A stretch of 64,000 bases of DNA from Endomicrobiia bacterium (GTDB taxonomy: Bacteria; Elusimicrobiota; Endomicrobiia; DTEH01), in assembly GCA_025059805.1 (NCBI GenBank), contig JANXDG010000050.1, forward strand, positions 18,157-82,156, written 5' to 3'. Position 1 is the first letter of the stretch. The number at the start of each line of letters is the position of its first letter. Positions 2,337-44,295 of the stretch are shown here, piece after piece. A program made the position numbers and the translations under genes. Under the pieces are notes generated by a model. It saw nothing but the letters and a program-made list of their open reading frames with translations, was not told the DNA's origin and did not search any database.

Positions 2337-3422
2337 TTATGTTTCTGGTAAAGAAGTTAGAATTTCAACCGCTATCTTTACAACATCAGGGTCAAACCAT
2401 AATCCACTATATTTTTTCAAAAGTTCAACGACATTTTGCTGAGATGTTCCGTTAATTTTTAATTCTTCAATATAGTCAACCACTGATATTATCCGAGCAG
2501 GTAACGGAATCTGAGCACCATTTAAACCCTCCGGATACCCTGTACCATCATAGTGTTCATGGTGATGTTTAATAACAGGAGCTATATTTTTAAGTAAACT
2601 TATTTTACTTACAATCTCTGCACCAATAATAACATGCATTTTTTCTATTCTTGCACGTTCTACTATATCAATTGCATTTTCCATTTCAAAACGTAGTTTT
2701 GACGATAAATATCCAATATCGTGTAATAAAGTACCGAAATAAACTTCCTTGTATTGTTCACTTTTAGGTTCTATGTTTAACTCTTTTGCAATCCTTGTTG
2801 CTAACTGTGTCATTTTCCAGTAACGACCGATATATTTAGGCCGTACGGTTTCTATCGCTGAAACAATAAGTTCTGTAACATTAGCAAAAAAGTTTCGTTG
2901 GTTTTCTGAAAATTTCGCATTAATTATTGTTACCGAAGCAAGCCCTGCTAAACTCTCTAATAATTTTTTATCTTCTTCAGTATAACCTTGTAAATCACGT
3001 TTGTTTAATACTTCAACTACACCTATAACTTCACTGTTACCCTCAGATGTTGTCATTAACATCGGTACTGCAAGTATTGACCTTGTCTTAAACCCACTTT
3101 GTTTATCCACAGAACCTGTAAACCTCGCATCTAGCGAAACATCATTTACAATCTCAGATTTTTTCGTCAAAGCAACATTACCAGCTATACCTTCGCCAAG
3201 TTTTACTTTTATTTTTTTTACTATAGCACCGTGTTCACCACCTGCAGTTTTGAAATATAAATGTTGTTTATCATCATCAACCAACATTATAGAACTTGCT
3301 TCAGAATTTGTTAACCGTTCAGCTGCTTCACCGATACGTTTAAGTAAAACATCTAAGTCTAAAGTTGAAGATAAACTTTTTACAATCTCAAAAATTTCTT
3401 CAAGTTTCTCTATTTCTGTCAT
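2337..3422 (-). CDS. GAF + HD-GYP domain protein (c-di-GMP phosphodiesterase family, partly degenerate)
   Basis: N-terminal GAF (SILAVPM, GVVEVLNK); LLHDIG and HHHEHYDGTGYP. Confidence 0.85.
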   Translation of the reverse strand: MTEIEKLEEIFEIVKSLSSTLDLDVLLKRIGEAAERLTNSEASSIMLVDDDKQHLYFKTAGGEHGAIVKKIKVKLGEGIAGNVALTKKSEIVNDVSLDARFTGSVDKQSGFKTRSILAVPMLMTTSEGNSEVIGVVEVLNKRDLQGYTEEDKKLLESLAGLASVTIINAKFSENQRNFFANVTELIVSAIETVRPKYIGRYWKMTQLATRIAKELNIEPKSEQYKEVYFGTLLHDIGYLSSKLRFEMENAIDIVERARIEKMHVIIGAEIVSKISLLKNIAPVIKHHHEHYDGTGYPEGLNGAQIPLPARIISVVDYIEELKINGTSQQNVVELLKKYSGLWFDPDVVKIAVEILTSLPET

Positions 3423-3449
3423 TGTGTACTCTCCTACTATCTCTAAAAA

Positions 3450-5252
3450 TTACCGTTGACATACAGATAGTACTTCAGAATAAGTTGTTATGCCTTTTGT
3501 AACTTTTATTAACCCGTCAACTAACAATGTCCTCATACCTGTCTTTAACGCAACTTCTCTTATCCTATTTGCTGAAAGTTCTTTCAAACAAAGTTCACGT
3601 AGTTCATCGTTCATAACAAGTAATTCATGCAATGCTGTCCTACCTTTCATTCCTGTATTACCACATTTCCTACAACCAACAGGTTTCATAAATGTTGCAT
3701 TTGAATAGTCTATGTTATACTCTTTAAGTACAGATATTAATTCTTCCGATGGTGAATTATCAGGTTGTTTACAATCATTACATAATGTCCTTACTAACCT
3801 CTGTGCTAAAACACCTTCTAAAGTGTTTGCAATAAGATATGTAGGTACACCCATCTCATACAACCGTGCAACTGCAGAAGGTGCATCGTTAGTATGTAAA
3901 GTTGACAAAACTAGATGTCCTGTCAATGCTGCCTCCATTGCAACCTGTGCAGTTTCCTGATCACGTATCTCGCCTACCATAATTATGTCAGGATCTTGAC
4001 GAAGGAACGCTCTCAACGCCATCGCAAAATCAAATTTTCTATCACCCATTTTTAAATCTGGATTTATCGGCACTTGTACTACGCCGTCAAGTTCGTACTC
4101 CACAGGATTTTCAGCAGTTATTACTTTTTCTTGTGGATCTTTAACTTTTTGCAATGCTGCGGTTAAAGTGAACGATTTACCAGAACCCGTCGGTCCACAA
4201 ACAAGAATTAAACCATATGGACGATTTAATAAATAAACAAATTTTTCCAACGTGTCAGGTAAAAACCCTAATGCTTCCAATGGTAACATCGCTCCAGACC
4301 TATCTAACATACGCATAACTACACTCTCACCATATATTGTCGGAACAACGCTTACTCTAAACTCAAGTGGAACACCTTTTGCTTTCACCTGTAGCCTACC
4401 ATCCTGTGGTATTCTCCGTTCAACAATGTTCATATTACACATAATTTTTATCTTTGATATCAACGCGTTTTTATACATTATAGGAATTTTAAACGAAGCT
4501 TTCCTGAGTAAACCATCAACTCTGTATCTTACAAGAATTTTTTTCTCAAAAGGTTCTATATGAATATCAGACGCTTTCAATCTTACCGCTTCAAGGATCA
4601 AAGCGTTAACAAGTTTCTCAACTTCTGGCGCATCAGGACTTACCTGCATAATATCTGTAATTTCTTCCTTAATCTGCTGTTCCACTGAAACTTCGCTTGA
4701 AACATCTAAACTTGCAAGTAACTCCTGAGTTAGCTCTTTAGCATCTTCAGTAAGTTCTTCATGTGAAACAGCAACTTTAACTGTATCTTTTTCTTCAAAA
4801 CTAACACTTTCTTCATAAGTAGTAGGTGTACCGTATAACTGTTCAATCCTGTCCTTTATATCATCAGGAAGTGCTAAATATGGTACTACTTTAAGTCCTG
4901 TTCTCAACTCTATGTCTTCTATGACAAACAAATCTCTTGGATCTACCATTGCTATAAACAAAAAATCTTCCTCTTTACTGAACGGTACAAGTTTATGCCT
5001 CTTACAAGTTTCTACGGGAACAAATTTTGATACATCAGGATCTATATCTAAATCTTGGAGGTCCACCACTTTTACTTTCCATTCAGACGATATTGTTTTA
5101 AGCAACTTGTGTTTCTCAACAATTTTTTTGTTAACCACATACTGTTGTAATGCTATACCACTGACAGATGCTTCGCTAGAAATCCTATCAATATCAGATT
5201 TTGACAAACCAAACTGTTCAGTTAATATTTCCGCAATAGTTTTCCTTTTCAT
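3450..5252 (-). CDS. pilB: Type IV pilus assembly ATPase, PilB/GspE family
   Basis: ASDIHIEP, PQDGR, GPTGSGKS, LRQDPDIIMVGEIRD, TGHLVLSTLH and Cys4 zinc motif. Confidence 0.9.
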   Translation of the reverse strand: MKRKTIAEILTEQFGLSKSDIDRISSEASVSGIALQQYVVNKKIVEKHKLLKTISSEWKVKVVDLQDLDIDPDVSKFVPVETCKRHKLVPFSKEEDFLFIAMVDPRDLFVIEDIELRTGLKVVPYLALPDDIKDRIEQLYGTPTTYEESVSFEEKDTVKVAVSHEELTEDAKELTQELLASLDVSSEVSVEQQIKEEITDIMQVSPDAPEVEKLVNALILEAVRLKASDIHIEPFEKKILVRYRVDGLLRKASFKIPIMYKNALISKIKIMCNMNIVERRIPQDGRLQVKAKGVPLEFRVSVVPTIYGESVVMRMLDRSGAMLPLEALGFLPDTLEKFVYLLNRPYGLILVCGPTGSGKSFTLTAALQKVKDPQEKVITAENPVEYELDGVVQVPINPDLKMGDRKFDFAMALRAFLRQDPDIIMVGEIRDQETAQVAMEAALTGHLVLSTLHTNDAPSAVARLYEMGVPTYLIANTLEGVLAQRLVRTLCNDCKQPDNSPSEELISVLKEYNIDYSNATFMKPVGCRKCGNTGMKGRTALHELLVMNDELRELCLKELSANRIREVALKTGMRTLLVDGLIKVTKGITTYSEVLSVCQR

Positions 5253-29080: not shown

Positions 29081-30148
29081 TCAGTAACATACTCTATTTC
29101 TTCCTAAAGATTTGGCTCTGTACAACAATTCATCTGTTTTTGATATTAATTCATCAAAGGTTTCACCAGAAAATTCCTTCACACCAAATGAACAAGTTAC
29201 AGTTATCTCTCCATTTGACGTAAAAAACTTTCTTGAACAAACTTCTTGCCTAAGCCGTTCCGCAACTATAACAGCTTGCCGCAAAGAAGTATGAGGTAAA
29301 ATTAAACAGAATTCTTCGCCACCATATCTCCCTGCAATATCCGTAATCCTAACATTATCTCGTATTACTTCACTTATAGTAGTTATAACTAAATCTCCCA
29401 CCTGGTGTCCATACTTATCATTTATTTGTTTGAAATGGTCTATATCAAACATAACCAAAGAAAGTTTTGTATTAAACTTATTAGCAAGAACAATTTCTTC
29501 CTGTAAACGCTTTATTATATAATCGTGATTATACAATTTTGTCATACTATCACTCACAACAGCATAAAACGTATAACATCTGTGTATTGCAGCTGAAGTT
29601 TGTTCAGCAATAATACTTAAAATAAGTCCCTCAAAACGTGAACGTGGAAACTTTTTGATTATTTTAAAATGTAGATTTAAGACGCCATAATTTTTATCCT
29701 GAAACTTTAGTGGTACTGCTATGAGCGCTTCTTTTCTGAGTGGTTTTACTTCAGGTGAGAAAAGTTTATAATAATATTCTGATGTTGAAACATCTCTAAC
29801 CATTACAGGAAGGCCTGTTTCAAGTGCTCGCCCAGCAACACCTTCACCAGGTTTAAGCCTTAACCCACGTACAACAGTTACACAAATATTTTTTCCAGCT
29901 TTGATTCTTAGTTCACCATTATCATAAATTAGCATTAGTGAACACCTTATTGGTCTCAACACTTCTGATACAACATCAACAATCTGTGGCAGAATTTTGT
30001 CCATTTCTACTGAAGAAGATATTTTAGAAAATTTCTTTAGAAGTTCTGCCAGCTTCGACCTATAATACGAGCTGAGTAACAAATATGAAATAATAAAAGA
30101 CAACAAACTAATAACTAATAAAAACAAAAAACAGGTTAAAAAATTCAT
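29081..30148 (-). CDS. Membrane-anchored GAF-GGDEF diguanylate cyclase
   Basis: N-terminal TM helix, GAF, DIDHFK..ND.YGH and RITD...RYGGEEF. Confidence 0.9.
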   Translation of the reverse strand: MNFLTCFLFLLVISLLSFIISYLLLSSYYRSKLAELLKKFSKISSSVEMDKILPQIVDVVSEVLRPIRCSLMLIYDNGELRIKAGKNICVTVVRGLRLKPGEGVAGRALETGLPVMVRDVSTSEYYYKLFSPEVKPLRKEALIAVPLKFQDKNYGVLNLHFKIIKKFPRSRFEGLILSIIAEQTSAAIHRCYTFYAVVSDSMTKLYNHDYIIKRLQEEIVLANKFNTKLSLVMFDIDHFKQINDKYGHQVGDLVITTISEVIRDNVRITDIAGRYGGEEFCLILPHTSLRQAVIVAERLRQEVCSRKFFTSNGEITVTCSFGVKEFSGETFDELISKTDELLYRAKSLGRNRVCY

Positions 30149-31890: not shown

Positions 31891-32718
31891 TCAATAATTG
31901 TGTAATATTACATCTGACAATAATGATAAAGTTGAAAGTGCTGCAAGATAACTTGTTTTTGGATTATTTTCTGAAGGCACGTTTTCTGTACGAACATATA
32001 TTTCACCTGCTAATGAATTAATACTTATTTCATGGACATTACTTGTGATCTCTCTGTCAGCAATTATCTTAACCCTCACTTTTTCTGGACAACCAGAAAC
32101 TATTGCTAAAGTTGCTGCTACGTTAATGTTCTGTGGGAAATACTTTACTGCAGTATAAACATCGCCGTTAAAAATTTCTGTACGTGTTGACTTTACCACT
32201 TTTTTGTATAAACTTGGTTTTAGATTAAAAATTTGTGAATTAAGTAAACTTTTTACTGGTTTTGTAGTCGTAAGCTGTATACTTCTAATCCCGGCAATAC
32301 TTGCTGCAGATAAAGCATCACAACCTGCAATAGCACCTGAAGGAATTTTTATTCTATATCCTTTGTCTAAAAGCAACTTATATTCATCAAAGTTTTCTAA
32401 AAGTCCACCTACAGAAAGTATTATAACAGTCTTAGATTTGTATGGTTTAATACTTCTTAAAATTTCACTAACTGCACCTACTGAAGCTGATTCCATTATT
32501 ACATCAGATTTTTTTATCAACTGCTTAATATTACTACATCTAAGAAGTTTGTCAGTGTAATATTTTATTCTACTGAATTTTTTCAGGAATAATAATAACT
32601 TGTCTTCATCAATATCATAGACATAAATTTTTCTTAGTTTATCAGCGAGAGTTGTTAATTTACTTAGAACAATCGTAGCGATGTTACCTGTGCCAATTAT
32701 ACCAAGAGTTTTATTCAT
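31891..32718 (-). CDS. nadX: L-aspartate dehydrogenase
   Basis: GTGNIA Rossmann motif, ESAS, SVGGL, PSGAIAG, FPQNINVAA and NPKTSYLA. Confidence 0.85.
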   Translation of the reverse strand: MNKTLGIIGTGNIATIVLSKLTTLADKLRKIYVYDIDEDKLLLFLKKFSRIKYYTDKLLRCSNIKQLIKKSDVIMESASVGAVSEILRSIKPYKSKTVIILSVGGLLENFDEYKLLLDKGYRIKIPSGAIAGCDALSAASIAGIRSIQLTTTKPVKSLLNSQIFNLKPSLYKKVVKSTRTEIFNGDVYTAVKYFPQNINVAATLAIVSGCPEKVRVKIIADREITSNVHEISINSLAGEIYVRTENVPSENNPKTSYLAALSTLSLLSDVILHNY

Positions 32719-33311
32719 ACATCTGTTTTAAAATTTTTGTATAGCTCGGACAACATATCTCTGATTTTGTTCAATTTTTCTAACAGTTCTTGTTGTGAAA
32801 GTTTGTTATAATTATTTACCAATTGTTGAAGTTCAAATTTTATCTTTTCAACTTTTTCTTTATCAGACTTAACATACATACGTAGTTTATCTACCATATT
32901 TTGGAAACTCGCTGCTAATTCTTGTAATTCATCACCTTTCCTCAACTTAAGATAAATCGTTAAATCACCATCAGAAAGTAGATTAAACATCTTATCAAAG
33001 ACGTACAAAGGTCCTGCAATACGATGTAAAACAAATATTCCTAATGTTACTATCAGGACAACAAATATAATACAAACATATACCACTGTTCTAAAAACAA
33101 GTTTTGTTACTGCTTCAACTTCTAATCCAGAAAGATTCTCAAGTAATGTTGTAGTCCTCAATGTGAGATTTACATAATAAGCTGTAGATAATAATATAAC
33201 TATGACTAGTACTAATACAATGATTAGGTACTTAATTTGAAACTTGGGATTGATTAAATAACGTCTTCTGCGTAGTATTACAGAACTACTCCCTAAAAGT
33301 TTTCTTAACAT
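32715..33311 (-). CDS. Two-TM HAMP-domain protein
   Basis: RRRYLINPKFQ, HRIAGPL and GDL...LRKGDEL. Confidence 0.8.
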   Translation of the reverse strand: MLRKLLGSSSVILRRRRYLINPKFQIKYLIIVLVLVIVILLSTAYYVNLTLRTTTLLENLSGLEVEAVTKLVFRTVVYVCIIFVVLIVTLGIFVLHRIAGPLYVFDKMFNLLSDGDLTIYLKLRKGDELQELAASFQNMVDKLRMYVKSDKEKVEKIKFELQQLVNNYNKLSQQELLEKLNKIRDMLSELYKNFKTDV

Positions 33312-35401: not shown

Positions 35402-36106
35402 TTATTTTATCCAATCGTTCAAATGTCCAAACTTATACTTTTTTTCTAAACAATAGTTTATAAATCTTTCTAGTACTTTAACAGTTCTATCCCTGTGTTT
35501 ACCACCATCATGAAATAAGTAAATACCTCCTGGCTGTAAAGCATTTATATATTTCTTAAACATTTCATCTTCAGTATAATTATGCCAGTCACAGCCAAAT
35601 GTCCAGTTAATAACTTTGTAACCAAACTTGTGCATTATAACCTCGTCCATCCATTGGCGATAATATCCATTAGGCATACGAAGAAATTGTATTTTAAAAT
35701 TATGAGTTAAAATTTTTTTAAGCTCTGCCTCTGTCTTCTCCAGCTCATCAACTAATATTTTTTTTAATTGTGGTATTGTATTGTTCTTTTGTAACTGATA
35801 AAAATTTTTATGGCTATAAGTATGACTACCTATAATATGACCATCACGTACTATTTCTCTAATAATATCTTGTCTAAATTTAGCTAACTCACCTAATACA
35901 AAAAATATGGCTTTAATATCATATTTTTTAAGAATTACAAGGATTTCTTTTGTATACTCACCTGGACCATCATCAAATGATAAAAAGATAACTTTTTCAT
36001 TATTAGTGTTTATTTTCCAGAAAAAAATATTATCCTTTTGGCTAAAACAATCAGAAGTAAATGTAAAAAGTATAAAAAATGTAATACTCAACTTTAATGT
36101 TTTCAT
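35402..36106 (-). CDS. Polysaccharide deacetylase (CE4/NodB), secreted
   Basis: LSFDDGP, HTYSH, RMPNG and LFHD; signal peptide from MKTLK. Confidence 0.9.
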   Translation of the reverse strand: MKTLKLSITFFILFTFTSDCFSQKDNIFFWKINTNNEKVIFLSFDDGPGEYTKEILVILKKYDIKAIFFVLGELAKFRQDIIREIVRDGHIIGSHTYSHKNFYQLQKNNTIPQLKKILVDELEKTEAELKKILTHNFKIQFLRMPNGYYRQWMDEVIMHKFGYKVINWTFGCDWHNYTEDEMFKKYINALQPGGIYLFHDGGKHRDRTVKVLERFINYCLEKKYKFGHLNDWIK

Positions 36107-36107
36107 C

Positions 36108-37739
36108 TTAATACTCTTTAATAAACTTTTTTGCTGCATAATAGCCAGGTGTGAATCCATATATAAAATTTATCATCACAAAAAGTATAATATAAAATAT
36201 TATTTCAAAAAAACTTAATTTAAGTCCTAACAAATATCGTTTCACAGGTTCAGCAATTGAGGAAAGAAGTATTACTATATAACACAATGATGTCAAGATA
36301 AAAATTAACCCACCAAAAGAAGTTTCAATTTGTGCTATGTCTTTATATTCCTTTTTTGGAAATAATATACCGAAAGAATATCCCGCAAGTGTCAACACTG
36401 CTGACGAAACTAAAATAATAACTAGCGACGATGACATTAAAATAGAGTCAACTTTTAATACTAAATTTGATAGCGTAACTATGATCAATCCTGGGATTAA
36501 AATCATCGGTATATATACAATAAATTTTATAATGAAAAAATGTGTTATATTTACTGGTGCCGATTTTAACAACCAAAAAATTTTATATTCCATACTTGGC
36601 TGTACGAAAACGAATCTTAATACTAATGCTGTTATTATAAACATTATTCCGCCTAAGTTAAAAAATGAAACTGTTACCCTTATATATTTAAATTCTAAAG
36701 GCAATCTGCTGATATTAAAAATATATATAGTAGTAAGAGCAATTACAACAACAAACTGTATCATTTGTATTGGTTCTCTTAGGAACAGTCTTATTTCTTT
36801 TGTTAGAATGGTCCTAAACAGTGAAGATATGTTTAGATCTTTCTCTTTTAGACAGGATTTTCTCAAATTTGTATTTGAACGAGTTAAACTTTTATAAAAT
36901 AATTTTACGCCCAAAATATATAGAACTATAACTGTAAAACAAAATACAAAAAATAATTTCAAAATATTAACACCGACTATCCAGTAGTCGGTTATCATCA
37001 ATCCGCGAAATACTTCTGTTACCCACCATGAGGGTAACCACTTAGCAACTGGTCTTGAAAGAAAATCCAAATATTCTACGAGCTCAGGGAAATTTTGTGG
37101 TGATAAAAACTTTTCTGGCTGAGAGATACGTAATAAAGAATAGAATAAAGACGACAACACTACAATTAGAATAAGTACTATATTTTTTATTTTTCTTGAA
37201 GGAAATAAATAAGACAATATTATTGTAACTAGACAACCTATAACTGTCCCAATAAACACTTTAAACAACACTGAAGTAGTTAGAACAAAATAGCCAAGTA
37301 TTGAAAAATTTTTGACACTAGCAAAACCTACCACAAAAGGTATCACAACCAAGAGTATCATCCAACAAGAATAGAAAGATGTCAATATTACTCTAAAAAA
37401 GAAAATACTATTTACATTAATTGGTAATGAAAATAAAAGATGTAATTCGTTTTCATCATAGAGAGTAGAAAATGATACAATTAATGATGAAAAAATTAAC
37501 ATCACAAAACTTGTAAGAAATGCTAAAGCTAATATTCTTATTATGAAAATATTTCCGATCACAGGAAAAGTTGAAATATATATTATCACCTGATATGAAA
37601 TTATGTAACTACATATGAACAGTCCTGTGACAAACAGTAATAATAAAACACTACGTATTTTTTCGAACTTTTGCGCAAATACTATTGTGTTTTTAAAAAG
37701 TTTCAACTGTAGAAATAACAGTCTGATTAAGTTATACAT
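36108..37739 (-). CDS. Putative ABC-2 type multi-TM permease
   Basis: About 12 TM helices, LFSLPI, KEIRLFLREP; next to an ABC ATPase. Confidence 0.8.
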   Translation of the reverse strand: MYNLIRLLFLQLKLFKNTIVFAQKFEKIRSVLLLLFVTGLFICSYIISYQVIIYISTFPVIGNIFIIRILALAFLTSFVMLIFSSLIVSFSTLYDENELHLLFSLPINVNSIFFFRVILTSFYSCWMILLVVIPFVVGFASVKNFSILGYFVLTTSVLFKVFIGTVIGCLVTIILSYLFPSRKIKNIVLILIVVLSSLFYSLLRISQPEKFLSPQNFPELVEYLDFLSRPVAKWLPSWWVTEVFRGLMITDYWIVGVNILKLFFVFCFTVIVLYILGVKLFYKSLTRSNTNLRKSCLKEKDLNISSLFRTILTKEIRLFLREPIQMIQFVVVIALTTIYIFNISRLPLEFKYIRVTVSFFNLGGIMFIITALVLRFVFVQPSMEYKIFWLLKSAPVNITHFFIIKFIVYIPMILIPGLIIVTLSNLVLKVDSILMSSSLVIILVSSAVLTLAGYSFGILFPKKEYKDIAQIETSFGGLIFILTSLCYIVILLSSIAEPVKRYLLGLKLSFFEIIFYIILFVMINFIYGFTPGYYAAKKFIKEY

Positions 37740-37795
37740 AAATTTTTAAAAATTCTTAAGATATGCCATTACTGTATTGATGGAAAGATTAGATA

Positions 37796-38548
37796 CTATT
37801 CGTGTTGAAATCCCGTAGTTACTCTAAGGTATATTTCTTCTAAACTTTCTGTATTTAGATTCAACTGTGATGCAATTTCTTTCCTTAGGCCACTAATTAA
37901 AATCTTTCCATTATTAATTATACAGACTCTTGTTGCTAACTGTTCAGCTAACTCTAACAGGTGCGTACATAATAATACCGTCTTACCCAATGATGATATT
38001 TGTTTAATATACTGTTTGAAAAAACTTATACATTTTGGATCAAGACCAACAAGTGGTTCATCAAGAATATAAAGTTCAGGATCACGCAAAAGTATACTCA
38101 TCAATAACAATTTTTGTTTCATACCTTTTGAATAAATTTCTATAGGCTGAGAAATAACATCTTGCAGTTCAAATTGAGAAATTAAATATTTATACTTACC
38201 CTGGTCAAATTCTTTCTTGTAAAGTGACAATATAAATTCAATGAATTCTATACCTCTAAGTTTACTATAAACATATGGCTCATCAGGTAAATATCCTATG
38301 TCGCGCTTTAACTCGGTATTATTAAGAAACATTTTTTTATTGAAAATATAAACTTCGCCACTGTCTGGTTCCAACACTCCAGATAAAATTCTTACAGTAG
38401 TGGTTTTACCTGCACCATTTGGTCCAAGTAAAACAAATATTTCACCTTTCTTTACAACAAAGCTTATATTAGATAAAACCTGTTTACCATCAAAATATTT
38501 TGATACATTTCTTACTACGACAATCTCGTTGTTATTCATACAATTCAC
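37796..38548 (-). CDS. ABC transporter ATP-binding protein
   Basis: GPNGAGKTT, YSKGMKQ and ILDEP. Confidence 0.95.
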   Translation of the reverse strand: MNCMNNNEIVVVRNVSKYFDGKQVLSNISFVVKKGEIFVLLGPNGAGKTTTVRILSGVLEPDSGEVYIFNKKMFLNNTELKRDIGYLPDEPYVYSKLRGIEFIEFILSLYKKEFDQGKYKYLISQFELQDVISQPIEIYSKGMKQKLLLMSILLRDPELYILDEPLVGLDPKCISFFKQYIKQISSLGKTVLLCTHLLELAEQLATRVCIINNGKILISGLRKEIASQLNLNTESLEEIYLRVTTGFQHE

Positions 38549-39135
38549 ACTACTATTGTTAACACGCCAGCAACAAAAATTGGTAACACAAAATTATCAT
38601 CCAAAGGTAATGGCAAAAATTCAATAGCCGCAGCTATAAAGGCTGCTAATAAAGCATACTCTGGTTTTACATAAAACAATCCGCACAGGAAAGCAATTAA
38701 AAAAAATGCTAAAGATCCTTCCAAACTTTTCCCTCGCGAGCCCAATTTAATCTTACCAAATGCTACTCCCACTACTGCTGCTATACTATCACCTAATGCG
38801 AGATATAACAAACTTAGCGTAACTATGTTTTTATTGTCAGAAAAAAGTAAAATTGTTAAAAACGCACCTGATAAAGTCCATATCAATGTAGATATATTAT
38901 CTTTTTCCTTTTCACGATAAGTTCCTTCAAAAAGTCTCAATAATAACTTATTAACTGAAGGATATAATAGTCTTATTGTTTCAAAAATTAAATCAATAAT
39001 TACCACAGTTGCTGATATTATAACAGAAGCAGCATATGGTAGAACATTATAAAGCACTGGATACAGTATTGTCAGTAGATGTAAACTTTTCCTTTTAAGT
39101 TCTTTTTTTAAATTTTCATTTACAAACATTCTCAT
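38545..39135 (-). CDS. CTP-dependent polyprenol/phytol/diacylglycerol kinase family (SEC59/DGK1/VTE5)
   Basis: RKSLH, GDSIAAVVG, KSLEGS and DDNF. Confidence 0.85.
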   Translation of the reverse strand: MRMFVNENLKKELKRKSLHLLTILYPVLYNVLPYAASVIISATVVIIDLIFETIRLLYPSVNKLLLRLFEGTYREKEKDNISTLIWTLSGAFLTILLFSDNKNIVTLSLLYLALGDSIAAVVGVAFGKIKLGSRGKSLEGSLAFFLIAFLCGLFYVKPEYALLAAFIAAAIEFLPLPLDDNFVLPIFVAGVLTIVV

Positions 39136-39848
39136 TTTTGTCTAAGCAAATTAAAGATGATTTTAAAAAGTTCAACAGTTATCTTATAACATTCTTTATA
39201 TGTAAGTATAATACTGCGAAGGAAAAAATCTTTTGTCAAATTTATATCGTTACGATTTAGAAACATCACATTAAATAACGCTATAAGGATTATACAGTTT
39301 AATATAAATATCAAAACAGTTGAAAACAGCCATCCTGAAATTTTCAAATCCTGCTGGCCTAAATATATAGCATGAATTGTCAAAATAATATGAAATGCTA
39401 TTGTGAACCCTAAAAAAAATGAAAGTAATCCAACTGAAAGTTCTAATTTGAATAAAAACCTCACTACGAACCATACTAATGTTCCTAAAATGGAATATAG
39501 TGGTACAAAATATGGGGATAGTGCGATAAACGTGTTAACTTTATCCACATTGACAGAACCTTGATTTGTACTTATCTTAACTTTCTTGATTTTACTACCA
39601 CAAAGATATGCACTTATCACATGCACCAACTCATGACTAAAAACATAAATACTTATAGGTTTATAAAAGAAGAAATGAATCAATACATATGTTATTATAC
39701 CAAAAAGAAAATATTGTACTAAATAATTACTCAACTCTATTTTGCTAAGTACAAAAATCAATGTTGATATAAGCACATAACACATTGGTAATAACAAAAC
39801 TCCATACAAAAATTTTACAACTTTATTATACAGAAGAAATTTTATCAT
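39132..39848 (-). CDS. Membrane metallopeptidase, M50-like (HExxH)
   Basis: YVFSHELVH and IALSPYF; several TM helices. Confidence 0.7.
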   Translation of the reverse strand: MIKFLLYNKVVKFLYGVLLLPMCYVLISTLIFVLSKIELSNYLVQYFLFGIITYVLIHFFFYKPISIYVFSHELVHVISAYLCGSKIKKVKISTNQGSVNVDKVNTFIALSPYFVPLYSILGTLVWFVVRFLFKLELSVGLLSFFLGFTIAFHIILTIHAIYLGQQDLKISGWLFSTVLIFILNCIILIALFNVMFLNRNDINLTKDFFLRSIILTYKECYKITVELFKIIFNLLRQK

Positions 39849-41619
39849 AAACAACAACTTTATTTCGTCCTGACGATTTCGCTACATAAAGTGCTTTATC
39901 TGCTTGTTCAATAATATCTCTGGATTTCATACCTCTAAAATAAGTTTTTACACCAATACTTATTGTGAGTTTAAGTTCTAAGGTATTTATTTTAAAAATT
40001 GTATTTTCAATCTTCTCCTTTATACGGTAAGCAATTTTTTCAGCCCAGTTTGAACCACATTCTATAAGCAATATTGCAAACTCTTCCCCACCATACCGAC
40101 ATACAATATCTGTTGTCCTTACAGATGATAGAAAAACTTGTGCTACTTGTTTTAACACAGCGTCTCCAACAAGGTGTCCATATGTATCATTTATTCGCTT
40201 GAAAAAATCTATATCTATCATAAGTAATGAAAATATGGTATTATATCGTTCACAACGCAAAATCTCATATTCTAATCGTGACATAAAATATCTTTGGATA
40301 AAAACTTTCGTAAGACTATCAGTTATAGCAAGCTCATATAATTGCGCATTATTCAATGCAACTGATATGTGCCTTACTAAGTTTTGTATTAGAGTGATAT
40401 CATAATTAGTAAATTTTGTATAATCTTCTTTGTCAGCAACAAGTATAAAACCTAAAACTTTATCACGAGATAGCATTGGTATAAACAATATTTCATCTCT
40501 AGTTATAATCTTAAAGTCTTCAATGTCACTACCTTGACAAACTAGTGTTTCCGTTAAATTTTCTAAAGTGGTATTAAACATTCTCAGAAGGTCAATAAAT
40601 GAAATGTTTTGTAAAAGATTGATATTTTCAACTGATTTTGACCAGCTTGCAAGATAAAAACTTTGTTTCTCTTCATCATAAATATAAACTACCACTTTTT
40701 TTACTTTTGCTAAACCTTTAATAAACTCAGGAGTTGAAGCTATAAGTTTTTCACTTTCAAGTATTTCAGAAATGTCTAAACTTATTCTATTCAACATATG
40801 TAAATCGTTTATACTACGTTCAAGATGTTTAGTTATTTCTCTAAAATCTTTTTCTAACTCTTTCTGTTTTACTACTTTGACTCCCATACCCACTTCAGGA
40901 CATATTGTAAGGAAATCACAATAAGGACAAAGATTATTTCTTACTGGTAAAAATTCTTTGTTTTCATATATTTCTCTCACTATATCTATAATTTTCTTTT
41001 TTGTTTCTTTTAAATTATCAGGAGTTTTACTCACAGAAATTTTTTGATTATATTGCAAGAAAATCTGTGATACAATCTTAGGAAAAAGTTTATATTTCTC
41101 CCAACAACATAATGCGTATATATCCATCTGCAAATCAGTGGCAAATTCATTCTCGGTTGGGATATACCCTCCAGTTTTATAATCAATTATTTCAACTCCG
41201 TCACCTACATCGTCAATACGGTCTATCTTACCTGTCAGGTAAAAATCTTCCAGGCCAACTCTAAAAAATTCTTCAACATATAATGGTGTAACCTTCATAT
41301 CATTATTTGCATAAAAATTTCTTAACCAAAAAGCAGCGTTGTGTTTAAACTCTGCTTCTTGTTCTTTGGATGTATAACCTTCGGAAATCCAAAAATAATC
41401 TAACATATACAACAGTTTGTCAACAGTACGTTCTTCTAAGTTCCTGATCTTAAAGAATTCTGCTAAAACTTTATGAATAGTATCTCCAACTGCTTGGTAT
41501 GGTTTTGTTTTTTTGTATAATGCGCCCACTCTGTCAATATACAAGAGTTTAAATTTGTACGGACATTGTAGGTATGACAATAACGCAGCTGCACTAAAAT
41601 ATTTAGGAAGGTTTTGCAT
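39826..41619 (-). CDS. PD-(D/E)XK (Cas4/AddB-like, 4-Cys) nuclease fused to GAF and GGDEF diguanylate cyclase
   Basis: S...L..Y.QCPYKF, G..IH, GKIDRID, IIDYKTG, QMDIY, CPYCDFLTIC; GAF; DIDFFK..ND.YGH, RTTD and RYGGEEF. Confidence 0.88.
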   Translation of the reverse strand: MQNLPKYFSAAALLSYLQCPYKFKLLYIDRVGALYKKTKPYQAVGDTIHKVLAEFFKIRNLEERTVDKLLYMLDYFWISEGYTSKEQEAEFKHNAAFWLRNFYANNDMKVTPLYVEEFFRVGLEDFYLTGKIDRIDDVGDGVEIIDYKTGGYIPTENEFATDLQMDIYALCCWEKYKLFPKIVSQIFLQYNQKISVSKTPDNLKETKKKIIDIVREIYENKEFLPVRNNLCPYCDFLTICPEVGMGVKVVKQKELEKDFREITKHLERSINDLHMLNRISLDISEILESEKLIASTPEFIKGLAKVKKVVVYIYDEEKQSFYLASWSKSVENINLLQNISFIDLLRMFNTTLENLTETLVCQGSDIEDFKIITRDEILFIPMLSRDKVLGFILVADKEDYTKFTNYDITLIQNLVRHISVALNNAQLYELAITDSLTKVFIQRYFMSRLEYEILRCERYNTIFSLLMIDIDFFKRINDTYGHLVGDAVLKQVAQVFLSSVRTTDIVCRYGGEEFAILLIECGSNWAEKIAYRIKEKIENTIFKINTLELKLTISIGVKTYFRGMKSRDIIEQADKALYVAKSSGRNKVVVYDKISSV

Positions 41620-41628
41620 AATAATTAA

Positions 41629-42993
41629 TTATCTTGGGATATATGCACCTTGTGGTTGTGATATCAAAAGTTTACCGTTATCTACCACAAGATTACCTTT
41701 AAATATTACTTTTAGAATTTTACCGTAAACTTCGTAACCTTCGTAAACAGTATAATCAGCAACGGTATTTAATCTTTTAACATTCACACGCCATTTTTCT
41801 TTAGGATAGTAAATTATTATATCAGCGTCACTTTTAAGAGCTAAAAAATCTCCTTTCTTAGGATATAAAGAAAAGATTTTTGCAGGTGTAGATGTTACCA
41901 TTTTTATTATATTCCTTAAATTTAACCTACGTTTTATACTTTCGGTAATGACAAAGTGAAATAACATACTTGTTCCTGGCAGACCCATTGGAATTTTGGT
42001 AAAGTTATCTCTAAACCTGAACTTCATTTTTTTACTAAATACACAATTATCAGTCGCAATAACATCTACTATACTATTCCTTACACATTTCCATAGGAAT
42101 ATTTTATCACTTAGTGATTTCACAGGTGGGCAACAAGTATAGAGGTAATTTTTCTTTATCTTAAAAACATTTCTTGTTAGATATAAATACTGTGGACAGG
42201 TCTCCGCATATATATTAAAATTTTTATTTTTTTGTTTCTTCCAGTAAATTATTTCTTCTAATGCGTCTTTGGTAGAAAGGTGAACAAAGTATATGTTACA
42301 CCCTACTTTATTATTAATACTAATCACTCTACGAACAGCTTCATATTCTACCACATTAGGTCGTGATAAAGGAAAGTATTTTACACTCAGTTTATCTTCG
42401 TTTTTTAATTTTTCAGTTAAAACATTAATCATATCACTATTCTCAGCATGTATCTCCAAAACTACATTCTTGTATTTTTTAAGTTCGTTTAAGATTATAT
42501 ATAATTTCCCATCGTCAATATACCAATTTTCTGTCTTAGGTAGAAATATCTTAAAACTTTTTATCCCATAAGAAATTAATTTTCTTATCAGTGTACTAAA
42601 GTCTTCATTAACATCAACAATTTGGGCATGGAAAGTGTAATCTACAAAACTTCCAGTTGCCTCTTTGAGGCGCCTATGGTAAGCTGCTAACAATGTTTCA
42701 CTTTTTTGTGGTATTATGTAGTCAATAACTGTGGTAACACCGTTGAGTAGTGCTGTTCTGGTACCTTTAGGAAAGTCTTCTAAAGTTTTTGCTCCGTAAG
42801 CTTCAAGGTTGAAATGCGTATGTGCATCTATCAAACCAGGGAATACGTAGCAACCATCTGCATCAATAAGCTTATGATCGTTTATAGCTATATGCTTTGC
42901 AACTTTTGTAATTTTCTGATTATTAATCTCTATGTCATATTTACCATAGTAACTTTTCGATATCAAAAAACCATTTTTTATTAACAATTTCAT
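41629..42993 (-). CDS. Dihydropyrimidinase/hydantoinase-family cyclic amidohydrolase
   Basis: PGLIDAHTH, SFK, HAEN, VHLS, ETCPQYL and ATD. Confidence 0.8.
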   Translation of the reverse strand: MKLLIKNGFLISKSYYGKYDIEINNQKITKVAKHIAINDHKLIDADGCYVFPGLIDAHTHFNLEAYGAKTLEDFPKGTRTALLNGVTTVIDYIIPQKSETLLAAYHRRLKEATGSFVDYTFHAQIVDVNEDFSTLIRKLISYGIKSFKIFLPKTENWYIDDGKLYIILNELKKYKNVVLEIHAENSDMINVLTEKLKNEDKLSVKYFPLSRPNVVEYEAVRRVISINNKVGCNIYFVHLSTKDALEEIIYWKKQKNKNFNIYAETCPQYLYLTRNVFKIKKNYLYTCCPPVKSLSDKIFLWKCVRNSIVDVIATDNCVFSKKMKFRFRDNFTKIPMGLPGTSMLFHFVITESIKRRLNLRNIIKMVTSTPAKIFSLYPKKGDFLALKSDADIIIYYPKEKWRVNVKRLNTVADYTVYEGYEVYGKILKVIFKGNLVVDNGKLLISQPQGAYIPR

Positions 42994-43346
42994 TCTATTA
43001 TTTTTTGAATCACATTATGCTCACCAAATAGTACTTTGACAGGTTTGACTTTTTCTTTAGTTTCATCAATATAACAAAAAGACATTATAATGAGTTTATC
43101 ACCAACTTCACCTAATCTTGCAGCCCCACCTTGTAGTGATACCATCTTTGAACCTTTTCTAGCAGGTATTACATATGTTTCAAACCTTTCGCCATTATTT
43201 AAGTTTATCACGAGAACAACTTCATAGGGTCTTATTTTTGCAGCTGACATAAAATTTATATCAATTTTTATACTCCCGGTATAGTACAAATTCTTATCAG
43301 TAACAGTAAGTCCTTGTAGTTTTGACTTAAGATATTTGAACATCAT
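42990..43346 (-). CDS. panD: Aspartate 1-decarboxylase
   Basis: KSK, Y.GSI.ID cleavage site, NGERFETY and GAAR. Confidence 0.92.
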   Translation of the reverse strand: MMFKYLKSKLQGLTVTDKNLYYTGSIKIDINFMSAAKIRPYEVVLVINLNNGERFETYVIPARKGSKMVSLQGGAARLGEVGDKLIIMSFCYIDETKEKVKPVKVLFGEHNVIQKIIE

Positions 43347-43366
43347 AACGGAAGTATTTCCTTCCA

Positions 43367-43837
43367 CTATTCAAGCATATAATCTTCAATTTTAAAACCT
43401 TTTTTTATGAGTTCTTCCTTCCACATCTGTTTTACAACAGGAATCTTTTGACGGGCAAGTTTCACCCACTTTGATTCAGGTGGCGAAAATAAATCTACAA
43501 CGGTTTTATACCAAATATACGCGTATTTAAGAGAACTTTCTTCAAGTTTTCTTTGTTTATTAAACTCAATAAGTTCCAATTTTATCTTATATTCCTCTTC
43601 TGAAATTTTATTTTTTGCAAATAATTTATCTAACTTAGATTTTTCAATCTGTGCTTCTTTTTCTAACGAATTCAACTTTTTCTCTGGATTATAATACCAG
43701 TCCATATATTTTTCAGCTTCATAGTAAGCTGATCTGGCTCGCAATAGCACATCTAAATATACAAATAGATATATTAAAACTATCCACATCATAATAAATA
43801 AAACTGTTTTATAGTGTTTTTTTAACAAATTTTTCAT
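43367..43837 (-). CDS. Hypothetical membrane-anchored helical protein
   Basis: N-terminal TM helix; tightly coupled to neighbouring genes. Confidence 0.7.
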   Translation of the reverse strand: MKNLLKKHYKTVLFIMMWIVLIYLFVYLDVLLRARSAYYEAEKYMDWYYNPEKKLNSLEKEAQIEKSKLDKLFAKNKISEEEYKIKLELIEFNKQRKLEESSLKYAYIWYKTVVDLFSPPESKWVKLARQKIPVVKQMWKEELIKKGFKIEDYMLE

Positions 43838-44295
43838 TCTTCAAACTTTTTTTTATATTCCTCAAATCTTTGTTCTGCAATTTTTGCTTCTTTAGACTTT
43901 GTACCTAACAAACTATGAATTTTTGATAAAAGAAGGTCTGGCTGTACAGGTTTTGTCAAAAAGTCTTTTACATTGGGTTCCATCTTAAACATCATTTGCA
44001 TGCTTAAATCTTTAAGTTGGCCTGAAACTACGATAATAGGTATCTTCTTATGACTTTGTTGTAAAGTTTTCACTACTTCATACCCAGATTTTTTTGGTAA
44101 TAGTGCATCAAGTATTATTAAATCAGGAATACTTTGTGCTATCTTTTCTAAAGCTTGTTGTCCATCTTTTGCTGTAATAACATTAAATCCTTGTTTAGTG
44201 AGATAATATTCAAAAAATGTTAGAACCGTATCATCATCTTCAACTATCAAAATAGTTTTTTCCTGTGGTTCTGCTAAAGACTCTACTTTATTCAT
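43834..44295 (-). CDS. Single-domain response regulator (receiver)
   Basis: VEDD, ILDALLP, VSG and KP. Confidence 0.9.
   Translation of the reverse strand: MNKVESLAEPQEKTILIVEDDDTVLTFFEYYLTKQGFNVITAKDGQQALEKIAQSIPDLIILDALLPKKSGYEVVKTLQQSHKKIPIIVVSGQLKDLSMQMMFKMEPNVKDFLTKPVQPDLLLSKIHSLLGTKSKEAKIAEQRFEEYKKKFEE

Follow-up and report, generated by a model that had tools for sequence, protein, structure and literature searches.

A stretch of 64,000 nucleotides from the Endomicrobiia bacterium contig JANXDG010000050.1 (the window) encodes a protein, P0001, in which an iron-sulphur (Fe-S) nuclease domain is joined through a GAF domain to a GGDEF diguanylate cyclase. By its motifs, this fusion is a sensor-linked cyclase carrying a previously undescribed, catalytically intact putative input domain. 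We tentatively propose that this AdnA-type nuclease domain acts as the input of the cyclase, such that the threading of free single-stranded DNA (ssDNA) ends would switch the synthesis of cyclic di-GMP (c-di-GMP).

As the preliminary description of this DNA had stated, the minus-strand open reading frame (ORF) has no internal stop, and its translation contains all the motifs quoted there: GKIDRID (D133), IIDYKTG (D146, K148) and QMDIY (Q164, Y168) of the nuclease, the staple cysteines C19 and C231/C234/C240, and RTTD (501-504) and GGEEF (510-514) of the cyclase. Pfam identifies PDDEXK_1 (PF12705, residues 8-241, 110.6 bits against a cut-off of 22), GAF_3 (289-424, 28.4 bits against 27) and GGDEF (PF00990, 431-587, 154.5 bits), and AlphaFold and conservation agree with this architecture of nuclease, GAF and intact cyclase. 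The AlphaFold model of the full protein, built from a 25-row alignment, has a mean predicted local distance difference test score (pLDDT) of 88 and a predicted template modelling score (pTM) of 0.50. It places long helices (252-284 and 405-432) on either side of the GAF core; D272 and L273 of the former are invariant or almost so among fusions, while the latter extends the last GAF helix as a signalling helix up to a DxLT motif. The top fold matches of the full model are Dcsbis (PA2771, 4zmu) and PadC (5llw), which likewise consist of a sensor, a helical linker, DxLT and GGDEF, although neither has a nuclease domain, their input being light or, presumably, a small ligand. The shared order of input, GAF and GGDEF supports the nuclease as the input. 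In such proteins, input domains shift the register of the coiled coil ahead of DxLT, as has also been proposed for GAF-linked cyclases (PMC8041772; this and all other articles are cited from excerpts).

The N-terminal domain is assigned by its sequence to the pfam12705/COG2887 'RecB family exonucleases', which are Cas4-like but non-CRISPR. Modelled separately (pLDDT 95.3, pTM 0.89), it is closest to AdnA (9np6, 6ppu; Z 21.9, root-mean-square deviation 2.5 over 231 residues, 19% identity), followed by ACE1 (Z 17.4), AddB (15.1), RecE (13.8), Dna2 (13.5) and Cas4 (13.1). Foldseek also put ACE1 and AdnA at the top, and AdnA accounted for the only nuclease matches in a profile search of the PDB (E 0.006-0.27), where a search with the single domain sequence found no match. 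Hence the earlier label of Cas4/AddB-like nuclease holds for the Fe-S PD-(D/E)XK class, but 'Cas4' is its weaker half: scores fall below the cut-offs of TIGR00372 (36.5 against 65) and PF01930 (20.3 against 22.7), the neighbours are housekeeping genes, and Cas1 was not found in the 92%-complete genome of origin. P0001 combines the D-DxK triad and the one-plus-three cysteine staple in a RecB-like fold, as AdnA/AddB-type nucleases do. The AdnA module of mycobacterial AdnAB shares both features, whereas the fusion is joined to a signalling enzyme and has neither a superfamily 1 helicase domain nor an adjacent helicase or partner subunit, excluding it as an AdnAB/AddAB helicase-nuclease. A separate PD-(D/E)XK frame of 940-960 amino acids occurs in all 10 genomes of the family, in G000 as one of an AddAB-like pair; the genome of origin has its AddAB-like pair on contig C72, so the fusion is an extra that resection does not need. 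ACE1 (9iab), an Argonaute-associated member of the Cas4 family, is like the fusion a helicase-free Fe-S PD-(D/E)XK domain of the same size, although its partner is a separate prokaryotic Argonaute (pAgo) with a role in immunity, rather than a fused GAF-GGDEF.

In both AdnA and ACE1 the D-DxK site is buried in a channel, and ACE1 cuts linear ssDNA, but not circular ssDNA or double-stranded DNA (dsDNA), with ssDNA cleaved only if a free end can be threaded (PMC12094033); the AdnA nuclease nibbles 5' ends (PMC5314763). By analogy with these enzymes, we infer that the domain carries an Fe-S cluster and cleaves ssDNA, and the shared fold and the threading seen in ACE1 lead to the prediction that ssDNA ends are the input.

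The second enzyme conforms to an active diguanylate cyclase, with GGEEF, the metal ligand D469 and the guanine-binding N477 and D486 all present. It scores 175.8 against the TIGR00254 cut-off of 37.4, and falls far under the cut-offs of NCBIfam equivalogs (210 against 370 for DgcA). P0001 is therefore classed from its residues as a member of the GGDEF cyclases, with D486 marking a canonical c-di-GMP synthase. The preliminary description had also allowed for cyclic GMP-AMP (cGAMP), which is unlikely to be the product: in the Hypr cGAMP synthases the Asp located nine residues beyond the guanine-binding Asn is replaced by Ser (PMC6456294), and the corresponding residue of P0001 (N477+9) is D486. 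Diguanylate cyclases require two GTP-loaded GGDEF domains to meet, and their RxxD site mediates product inhibition (PMC4937426).

The fusion is not confined to this assembly. Residues 1-270 were searched against proteins of 328-1045 amino acids, giving 375 matches; among the 120 listed, 14 clusters (90% identity) other than that of the query combine PF12705 with PF00990, two being named by their source as Endomicrobiia or Elusimicrobiota. Among 150 proteins listed from a profile search of 1.84 billion representatives, 14 combine nuclease and GGDEF, and two more are nuclease-GAF-GAF with an end left unassigned. Within the phylum, 15 of 401 genomes carry the fusion, in six families and two or more classes: 4/10 in its own family, 3/3 in f3, 1/1 in f6, 5/11 in f19, 1/1 in f23 and one genome of f31, in which the copy stops at a contig edge before the cyclase. 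It is absent among the matches listed from the two largest families (f4, 89 genomes; f20, 118), and 253 weaker matches lay outside those listed, such that the count may not include divergent fusions; neither GAF nor GGDEF was present in twenty long-frame nuclease loci from this search. A nuclease-GGDEF ORF was found in 0/80 viral loci and 1/80 metagenome loci, with two more of the latter cut by contig ends; of the 64 parts of the genome-contig and metagenome collections, 19 were scanned. These homologues rule out a chimera, the artefact against which the preliminary description had advised a check. Three DNA runs contain the fusion stretch, and no RNA run was among those listed; the X3 contigs cover 39100-40896 and 40894-41432, with none spanning the nuclease-helix junction and no joints listed.

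Conservation was counted over 43 aligned fusion rows, including some near-duplicates, of which 41 bear the cyclase. In the nuclease, K148 and Q164 are present in all 43 rows, D133 and H49 in 42, D146 and E116 in 39, and Y168 in 38, leaving the D-DxK triad complete in 38. In the cyclase, GGEEF is universal, D486 is found in 40 rows and RxxD in 39. Averaged over sequence pairs, identity reaches 61% in the N-terminal half of GGDEF and 58% in the signalling helix, compared with 49% in the nuclease, 43% in helix 252-284 and 25% in the GAF core. The nuclease is about twice as conserved as the GAF core, which supports the former as the input. Ratios of non-synonymous to synonymous substitution rates (Nei-Gojobori) among G044, G063 and G059 were 0.075-0.107 for the nuclease, 0.135-0.177 for GAF and 0.068-0.080 for GGDEF; the corresponding values were 0.088, 0.089 and 0.077 for G011/G017, and 0.21, 0.35 and 0.17 for G000/G009, a pair near saturation, with one or more domains saturated in three of the eight pairs. 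These values indicate purifying selection on both enzyme domains.

All four cysteines are present in 42/43 rows, the remaining row being cut at its N end, and every row without D146 or D133 retains them. This pattern would also be expected if the 4Fe-4S staple were a sensor of oxygen or redox state, with cluster loss unfolding the domain and thereby altering the cyclase. Such a role is improbable, as the same cysteines are invariant in stand-alone nucleases too, the staple of ACE1-type nucleases has been described as structural (PMC12094033), and the DNA-cutting residues are also under selection.

Natural variants bear on the direction of any coupling. Firstly, P0154, a single Elusimicrobiota sequence, connects nuclease and GGDEF through a helix of 41 residues, GAF and RxxD both being absent, and again supports the nuclease as the input. 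Secondly, D146 is missing from P0151 and its two full-length cluster mates, and from P0140, a single sequence, yet all of these keep the staple and GGEEF, suggesting that some lineages can do without cutting but retain the domain. Thirdly, P0143 and P0159 keep the nuclease motifs, followed by GAF-GAF and a GGDEF-like end without catalytic motifs (45% and E 2e-4 in hhalign; 0.93 to GGDEF clusters in Atlas for P0143). The GAF-less and nuclease-dead variants favour the nuclease as input, whereas the degenerate-cyclase variant favours it as output. Were the nuclease the output, it would be gated through the dimer, either by c-di-GMP at RxxD or by a GAF ligand or partner, which would account for the retention of both triad and RxxD; we consider this reversal unlikely, given the nuclease-dead, cyclase-intact forms and that an effector would not need GGEEF in 41/41 cyclase rows. 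A possible membrane input for such an arrangement is a transmembrane-HAMP (TM-HAMP) gene that adjoins the fusion, or lies two genes away, in 7/7 loci of the f19/f23 clade; no close orthologue was found in five f19 genomes without the fusion, only paralogues of 25-29% identity. However, its homologue in the window (32715-33311; 31% identical) is kept in 2/4 same-genus genomes without the fusion, and by this comparison its presence in that genus does not follow that of the fusion. The TM-HAMP protein (L059:3051-3614, and that of the window) is small and has no output domain.

Other copies differ in less informative ways. G061 (L063:1620-3386) is a mosaic, with the nuclease half of a G048-like lineage and a GAF-GGDEF typical of its own genus. 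In the G005 copy, a frameshift within an A-run (L026:10200-10220) truncates GGDEF, giving 529 amino acids, and D133N is also present, reflecting either decay or assembly error. P0133 resembles an in-frame deletion product and was not counted as a variant.

Relatives without a cyclase were placed using quick LG+G4 trees of subsets (96, 110 and 49 rows), leaving out near-duplicates and most helicase-fused rows. In the 96-row tree, a starred clade unites 24 Elusimicrobiota-type fusions; a further two fusions join at the next starred clade, as do five stand-alone nucleases that end in an acidic-x-PF tail. This tail is found in none of the other rows (16 stand-alone, 53 mid-length, 123 helicase-fused and 27 fused). 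One starred side of the 110-row tree contains all 35 fused and all nine tailed rows, along with 22 stand-alone rows that have no tail, and a P-aromatic ending characterises 6/25 representative stand-alone rows inside this side against 0/12 outside. The consensus of the SSB tip is DDDIPF, and in the genome of origin the acidic-x-PF tail occurs on only 2/2141 ORFs, one SSB-like (a weak Pfam SSB match) and the other (C7:3772-4086) presumably XseB-like. Three tailed genes precede a TIGR00375-like gene, which we take to be EndoQ-like, and one follows dnaX. The acidic SSB tip recruits repair proteins (PMC7145534). Tails and neighbours together point to ssDNA handling as the setting of the fusion's nuclease clade. 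A single origin of the fusion is unsupported, as the nuclease tree needs five changes and the GGDEF tree lacks resolution at depth.

Several other paralogues were observed. A tandem two-nuclease protein lies inside a ComEC-like operon in G000 and G230 and, to the extent that the loci cover it, in G004 and G007 (G000:C69:32831-39170, that is L023 and L024; L076:2183-8522; L015; L017). The operon consists of a long ComEC-like gene, the two-nuclease gene, whose first nuclease copy has no catalytic residues, and a metallo-beta-lactamase protein gene, with a second ComEC-like gene 8 kb away; the long ComEC-like protein of G000 has an insert that we assume to be SNase-like. In Ozemobacter and Avigastranaerophilus records the Fe-S nuclease module is repeated in tandem, with 3 to 5 copies per protein and diverged inner copies. 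A widespread stand-alone paralogue of about 250 amino acids (L067-L071, L073, L077, L078) sits between what are presumably an RsmD-like methylase gene and arginine synthesis genes.

If the nuclease domain is indeed the input, the helix-GAF-helix part would hold a constitutive dimer, and DNA in the nuclease channels would pull helix 252-284 and thereby move the signalling helix into another register, in the manner of DgcR and PadC. Strand cutting would then reset the signal, and the RxxD site would cap the output; DNA may turn the cyclase either on or off. The genome's MshEN ATPases and PilZ proteins, rather than the adjacent M50-like block, would act as readers of the c-di-GMP, affecting pili, attachment and DNA uptake. 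The genome encodes three MshEN ATPases, two PilZ proteins, four HD-GYP motifs, eight GGDEF matches and two ComEC-like genes. A GAF-HD-GYP gene adjoins an MshEN ATPase gene (window 2337-5252), and a second GAF-GGDEF is found at 29081-30148. The earlier idea of a nucleic-acid input to the cyclase thus gains comparative support from fold, variants, conservation and selection.

Several observations weigh against this proposal. The nuclease triad is conserved beyond the needs of a pure binding sensor, and P0143 and P0159 fit the reverse direction, whereas P0154 and P0140 are single sequences that could be assembly errors. Solo Cas4 prefers supercoiled dsDNA (PMC12501428), so the fusion may act on a substrate other than ssDNA ends. 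In the nuclease tree, fused forms are intermingled with stand-alone ones (five changes, at least three of them forced), meaning the halves can live apart. The pTM of the full model, and the hinge between nuclease and helix, disfavour rigid coupling. The last two points would also suit tethered but uncoupled enzymes, the fusion merely co-expressing or co-locating a repair nuclease with a cyclase of the ordinary, GAF-regulated kind, as would its patchy presence, its clean loss from six same-genus genomes and the exchanged nuclease half of G061. That explanation is nevertheless rather unlikely: the fusion has persisted in different classes, down to about 35% identity, and makes up at least 14 clusters when grouped at 50% identity, the joining helix is better conserved than the GAF core, and the G061 swap left the fusion in frame.

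Table 1. Features of the window, and related nucleases elsewhere (positions refer to the window unless a locus or protein is named).
Feature	Position	Strand	Basis or remark
Nuclease-GAF-GGDEF fusion gene, P0001	39826..41619	-	597-amino-acid ORF and Pfam
AdnA/ACE1-like PD-(D/E)XK nuclease domain, residues 1-243	40891..41619	-	H49, E116, D133, D146, K148, Q164, Y168 and Cys staple
Hinge, residues 245-251	40867..40887	-	pLDDT <50 in AlphaFold model
Long helix 252-284 into GAF, predicted coiled coil of dimer	40768..40866	-	DSSP on model
GAF domain, 289-424	40348..40755	-	Least conserved part of fusion
GGDEF domain, 431-587, with D469, N477, D486	39859..40329	-	Pfam and conservation
RxxD inhibitory site (RTTD)	40108..40119	-	Kept in 39/41 cyclase rows
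GGEEF active-site motif	40078..40092	-	41/41 cyclase rows
M50-like membrane protein	39132..39857	-	Downstream neighbour; near-universal, independent of fusion
Membrane protein, ATP-binding cassette (ABC) ATPase, ABC permease, polysaccharide deacetylase	35402..39135	-	Class-level block, outside system
Upstream genes: dihydropyrimidinase-like amidohydrolase, panD, 156-amino-acid hypothetical, single receiver domain	41629..44295	-	Unlinked to fusion
MshEN-bearing pilus/secretion ATPase	3450..5252	-	Candidate c-di-GMP reader, inferred, unlinked
Tailed stand-alone nucleases	L134:1164-1940, L066:6520-7290, L072:6606-7385, L011:1444-2226, L012:1489-2265; P0147, P0157, P0167, P0186		Acidic-x-PF tail
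Tandem-array nuclease proteins	L187:1894-5856, L190:4726-8706, L174:180-3002, L204:5965-8286; P0123-P0125		

The M50-like gene directly follows the fusion in 14/14 complete phylum loci and one metagenome locus, giving a fixed position in 15/16 assessable loci; the exception, L133 (from a record titled 'bacterium'), lies beside a 5'-nucleotidase gene and near an endonuclease IV gene. However, the M50-like gene has a single match in 366/401 phylum genomes and is also present in 20/20 loci from genomes without the fusion. In six same-genus genomes lacking the fusion, panD or the 156-amino-acid gene abuts the M50-like gene, with the membrane protein, ABC ATPase and permease genes behind, whereas in f19 and f23, of another class, the M50-like gene alone follows the fusion. 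Comparison of these loci indicates that the linkage is an inherited position and no circuit, and the envelope output that had been suggested for the downstream genes is rejected, as the block persists where the fusion is missing. The earlier labels of the ABC ATPase, permease and deacetylase stand, but the M50 match to Pfam is below cut-off (E 0.0096) in what is an HExxH membrane protein, and the 'lipid kinase', with no Pfam or NCBIfam match, is unconfirmed. Linkage to what we take to be recA, a few genes upstream in G044, G063 and G053, was likewise rejected, as the gene is also there in G055, which has no fusion. Promoter and terminator scans gave results at chance level.

The same neighbourhood speaks against a one-protein anti-phage system, in which the nuclease would detect or cut phage DNA and a cyclic dinucleotide would trigger an effector such as the M50-like protease. 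Nucleases of pfam12705 do occur in defence contexts (PMC5704561), and ACE1 is an immunity nuclease (PMC12094033). Yet the fusion's position is a housekeeping one, its supposed effector is near-universal, the canonical Asp and I-site are present, and HD-GYP enzymes turn the signal over, making this role highly improbable. PADLOC returned only generic Cas4 and weak DruK matches. Nor is the fusion an APACE1 (pAgo-ACE1) system by its neighbours, which were assigned to families other than pAgo, the whole genome not having been searched for it.

The closest conceptual counterpart is DisA of Bacillus subtilis, likewise a single polypeptide in which a helical linker connects a cyclic-dinucleotide synthase to a DNA-binding domain, and whose synthesis of c-di-AMP is suppressed by branched DNA (PMC6547438). 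The two have no domain in common: DisA pairs a diadenylate cyclase (DAC) domain making c-di-AMP with a non-catalytic helix-hairpin-helix (HhH) domain, whereas the fusion pairs a GGDEF domain for c-di-GMP with an Fe-S nuclease, in the reverse order. P0001 has no DAC or HhH match, and the one DAC of its genome lies elsewhere, in a frame of 262 amino acids. By analogy the fusion would likely work as DisA does, although DNA control has been shown for DisA and is predicted for the fusion.

Descriptions of COG2887/pfam12705 fusions elsewhere concern UvrD or other helicases. GGDEF is unmentioned in the available text and searched supplements of a Cas4 phylogenomic study (PMC5704561) and a PD-(D/E)XK census (PMC3424549). 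No nuclease-GGDEF fusion was found described in the literature covered, which included a passage of a 2026 defence review and extended to few subscription papers. Neither did the literature searched yield a case of direct DNA control of a c-di-GMP synthase. Among cyclic-dinucleotide synthases, cGAS-type enzymes are under direct DNA control. New here are the GAF-less form, the nuclease-dead forms with a live cyclase, the degenerate-cyclase forms and the stand-alone sisters with SSB-like tails.

It is possible, if doubtful, that these proteins are a family of c-di-GMP synthases that read ssDNA ends, whether at breaks, at gaps or in DNA imported by ComEC, through a self-resetting nuclease sensor, and so set pilus activity, attachment and uptake: a counterpart of DisA evolved from a repair nuclease with SSB-mimic-tailed sisters. 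The natural variants without GAF, with a dead nuclease or with a dead cyclase provide ready controls, and a hot-spring member should be tractable for assay and structure. If the two enzymes are uncoupled, this would be a lasting but minor domain fusion. If the coupling is true, one soluble protein would link the state of the genome, or incoming DNA, to the main lifestyle switch of bacteria.

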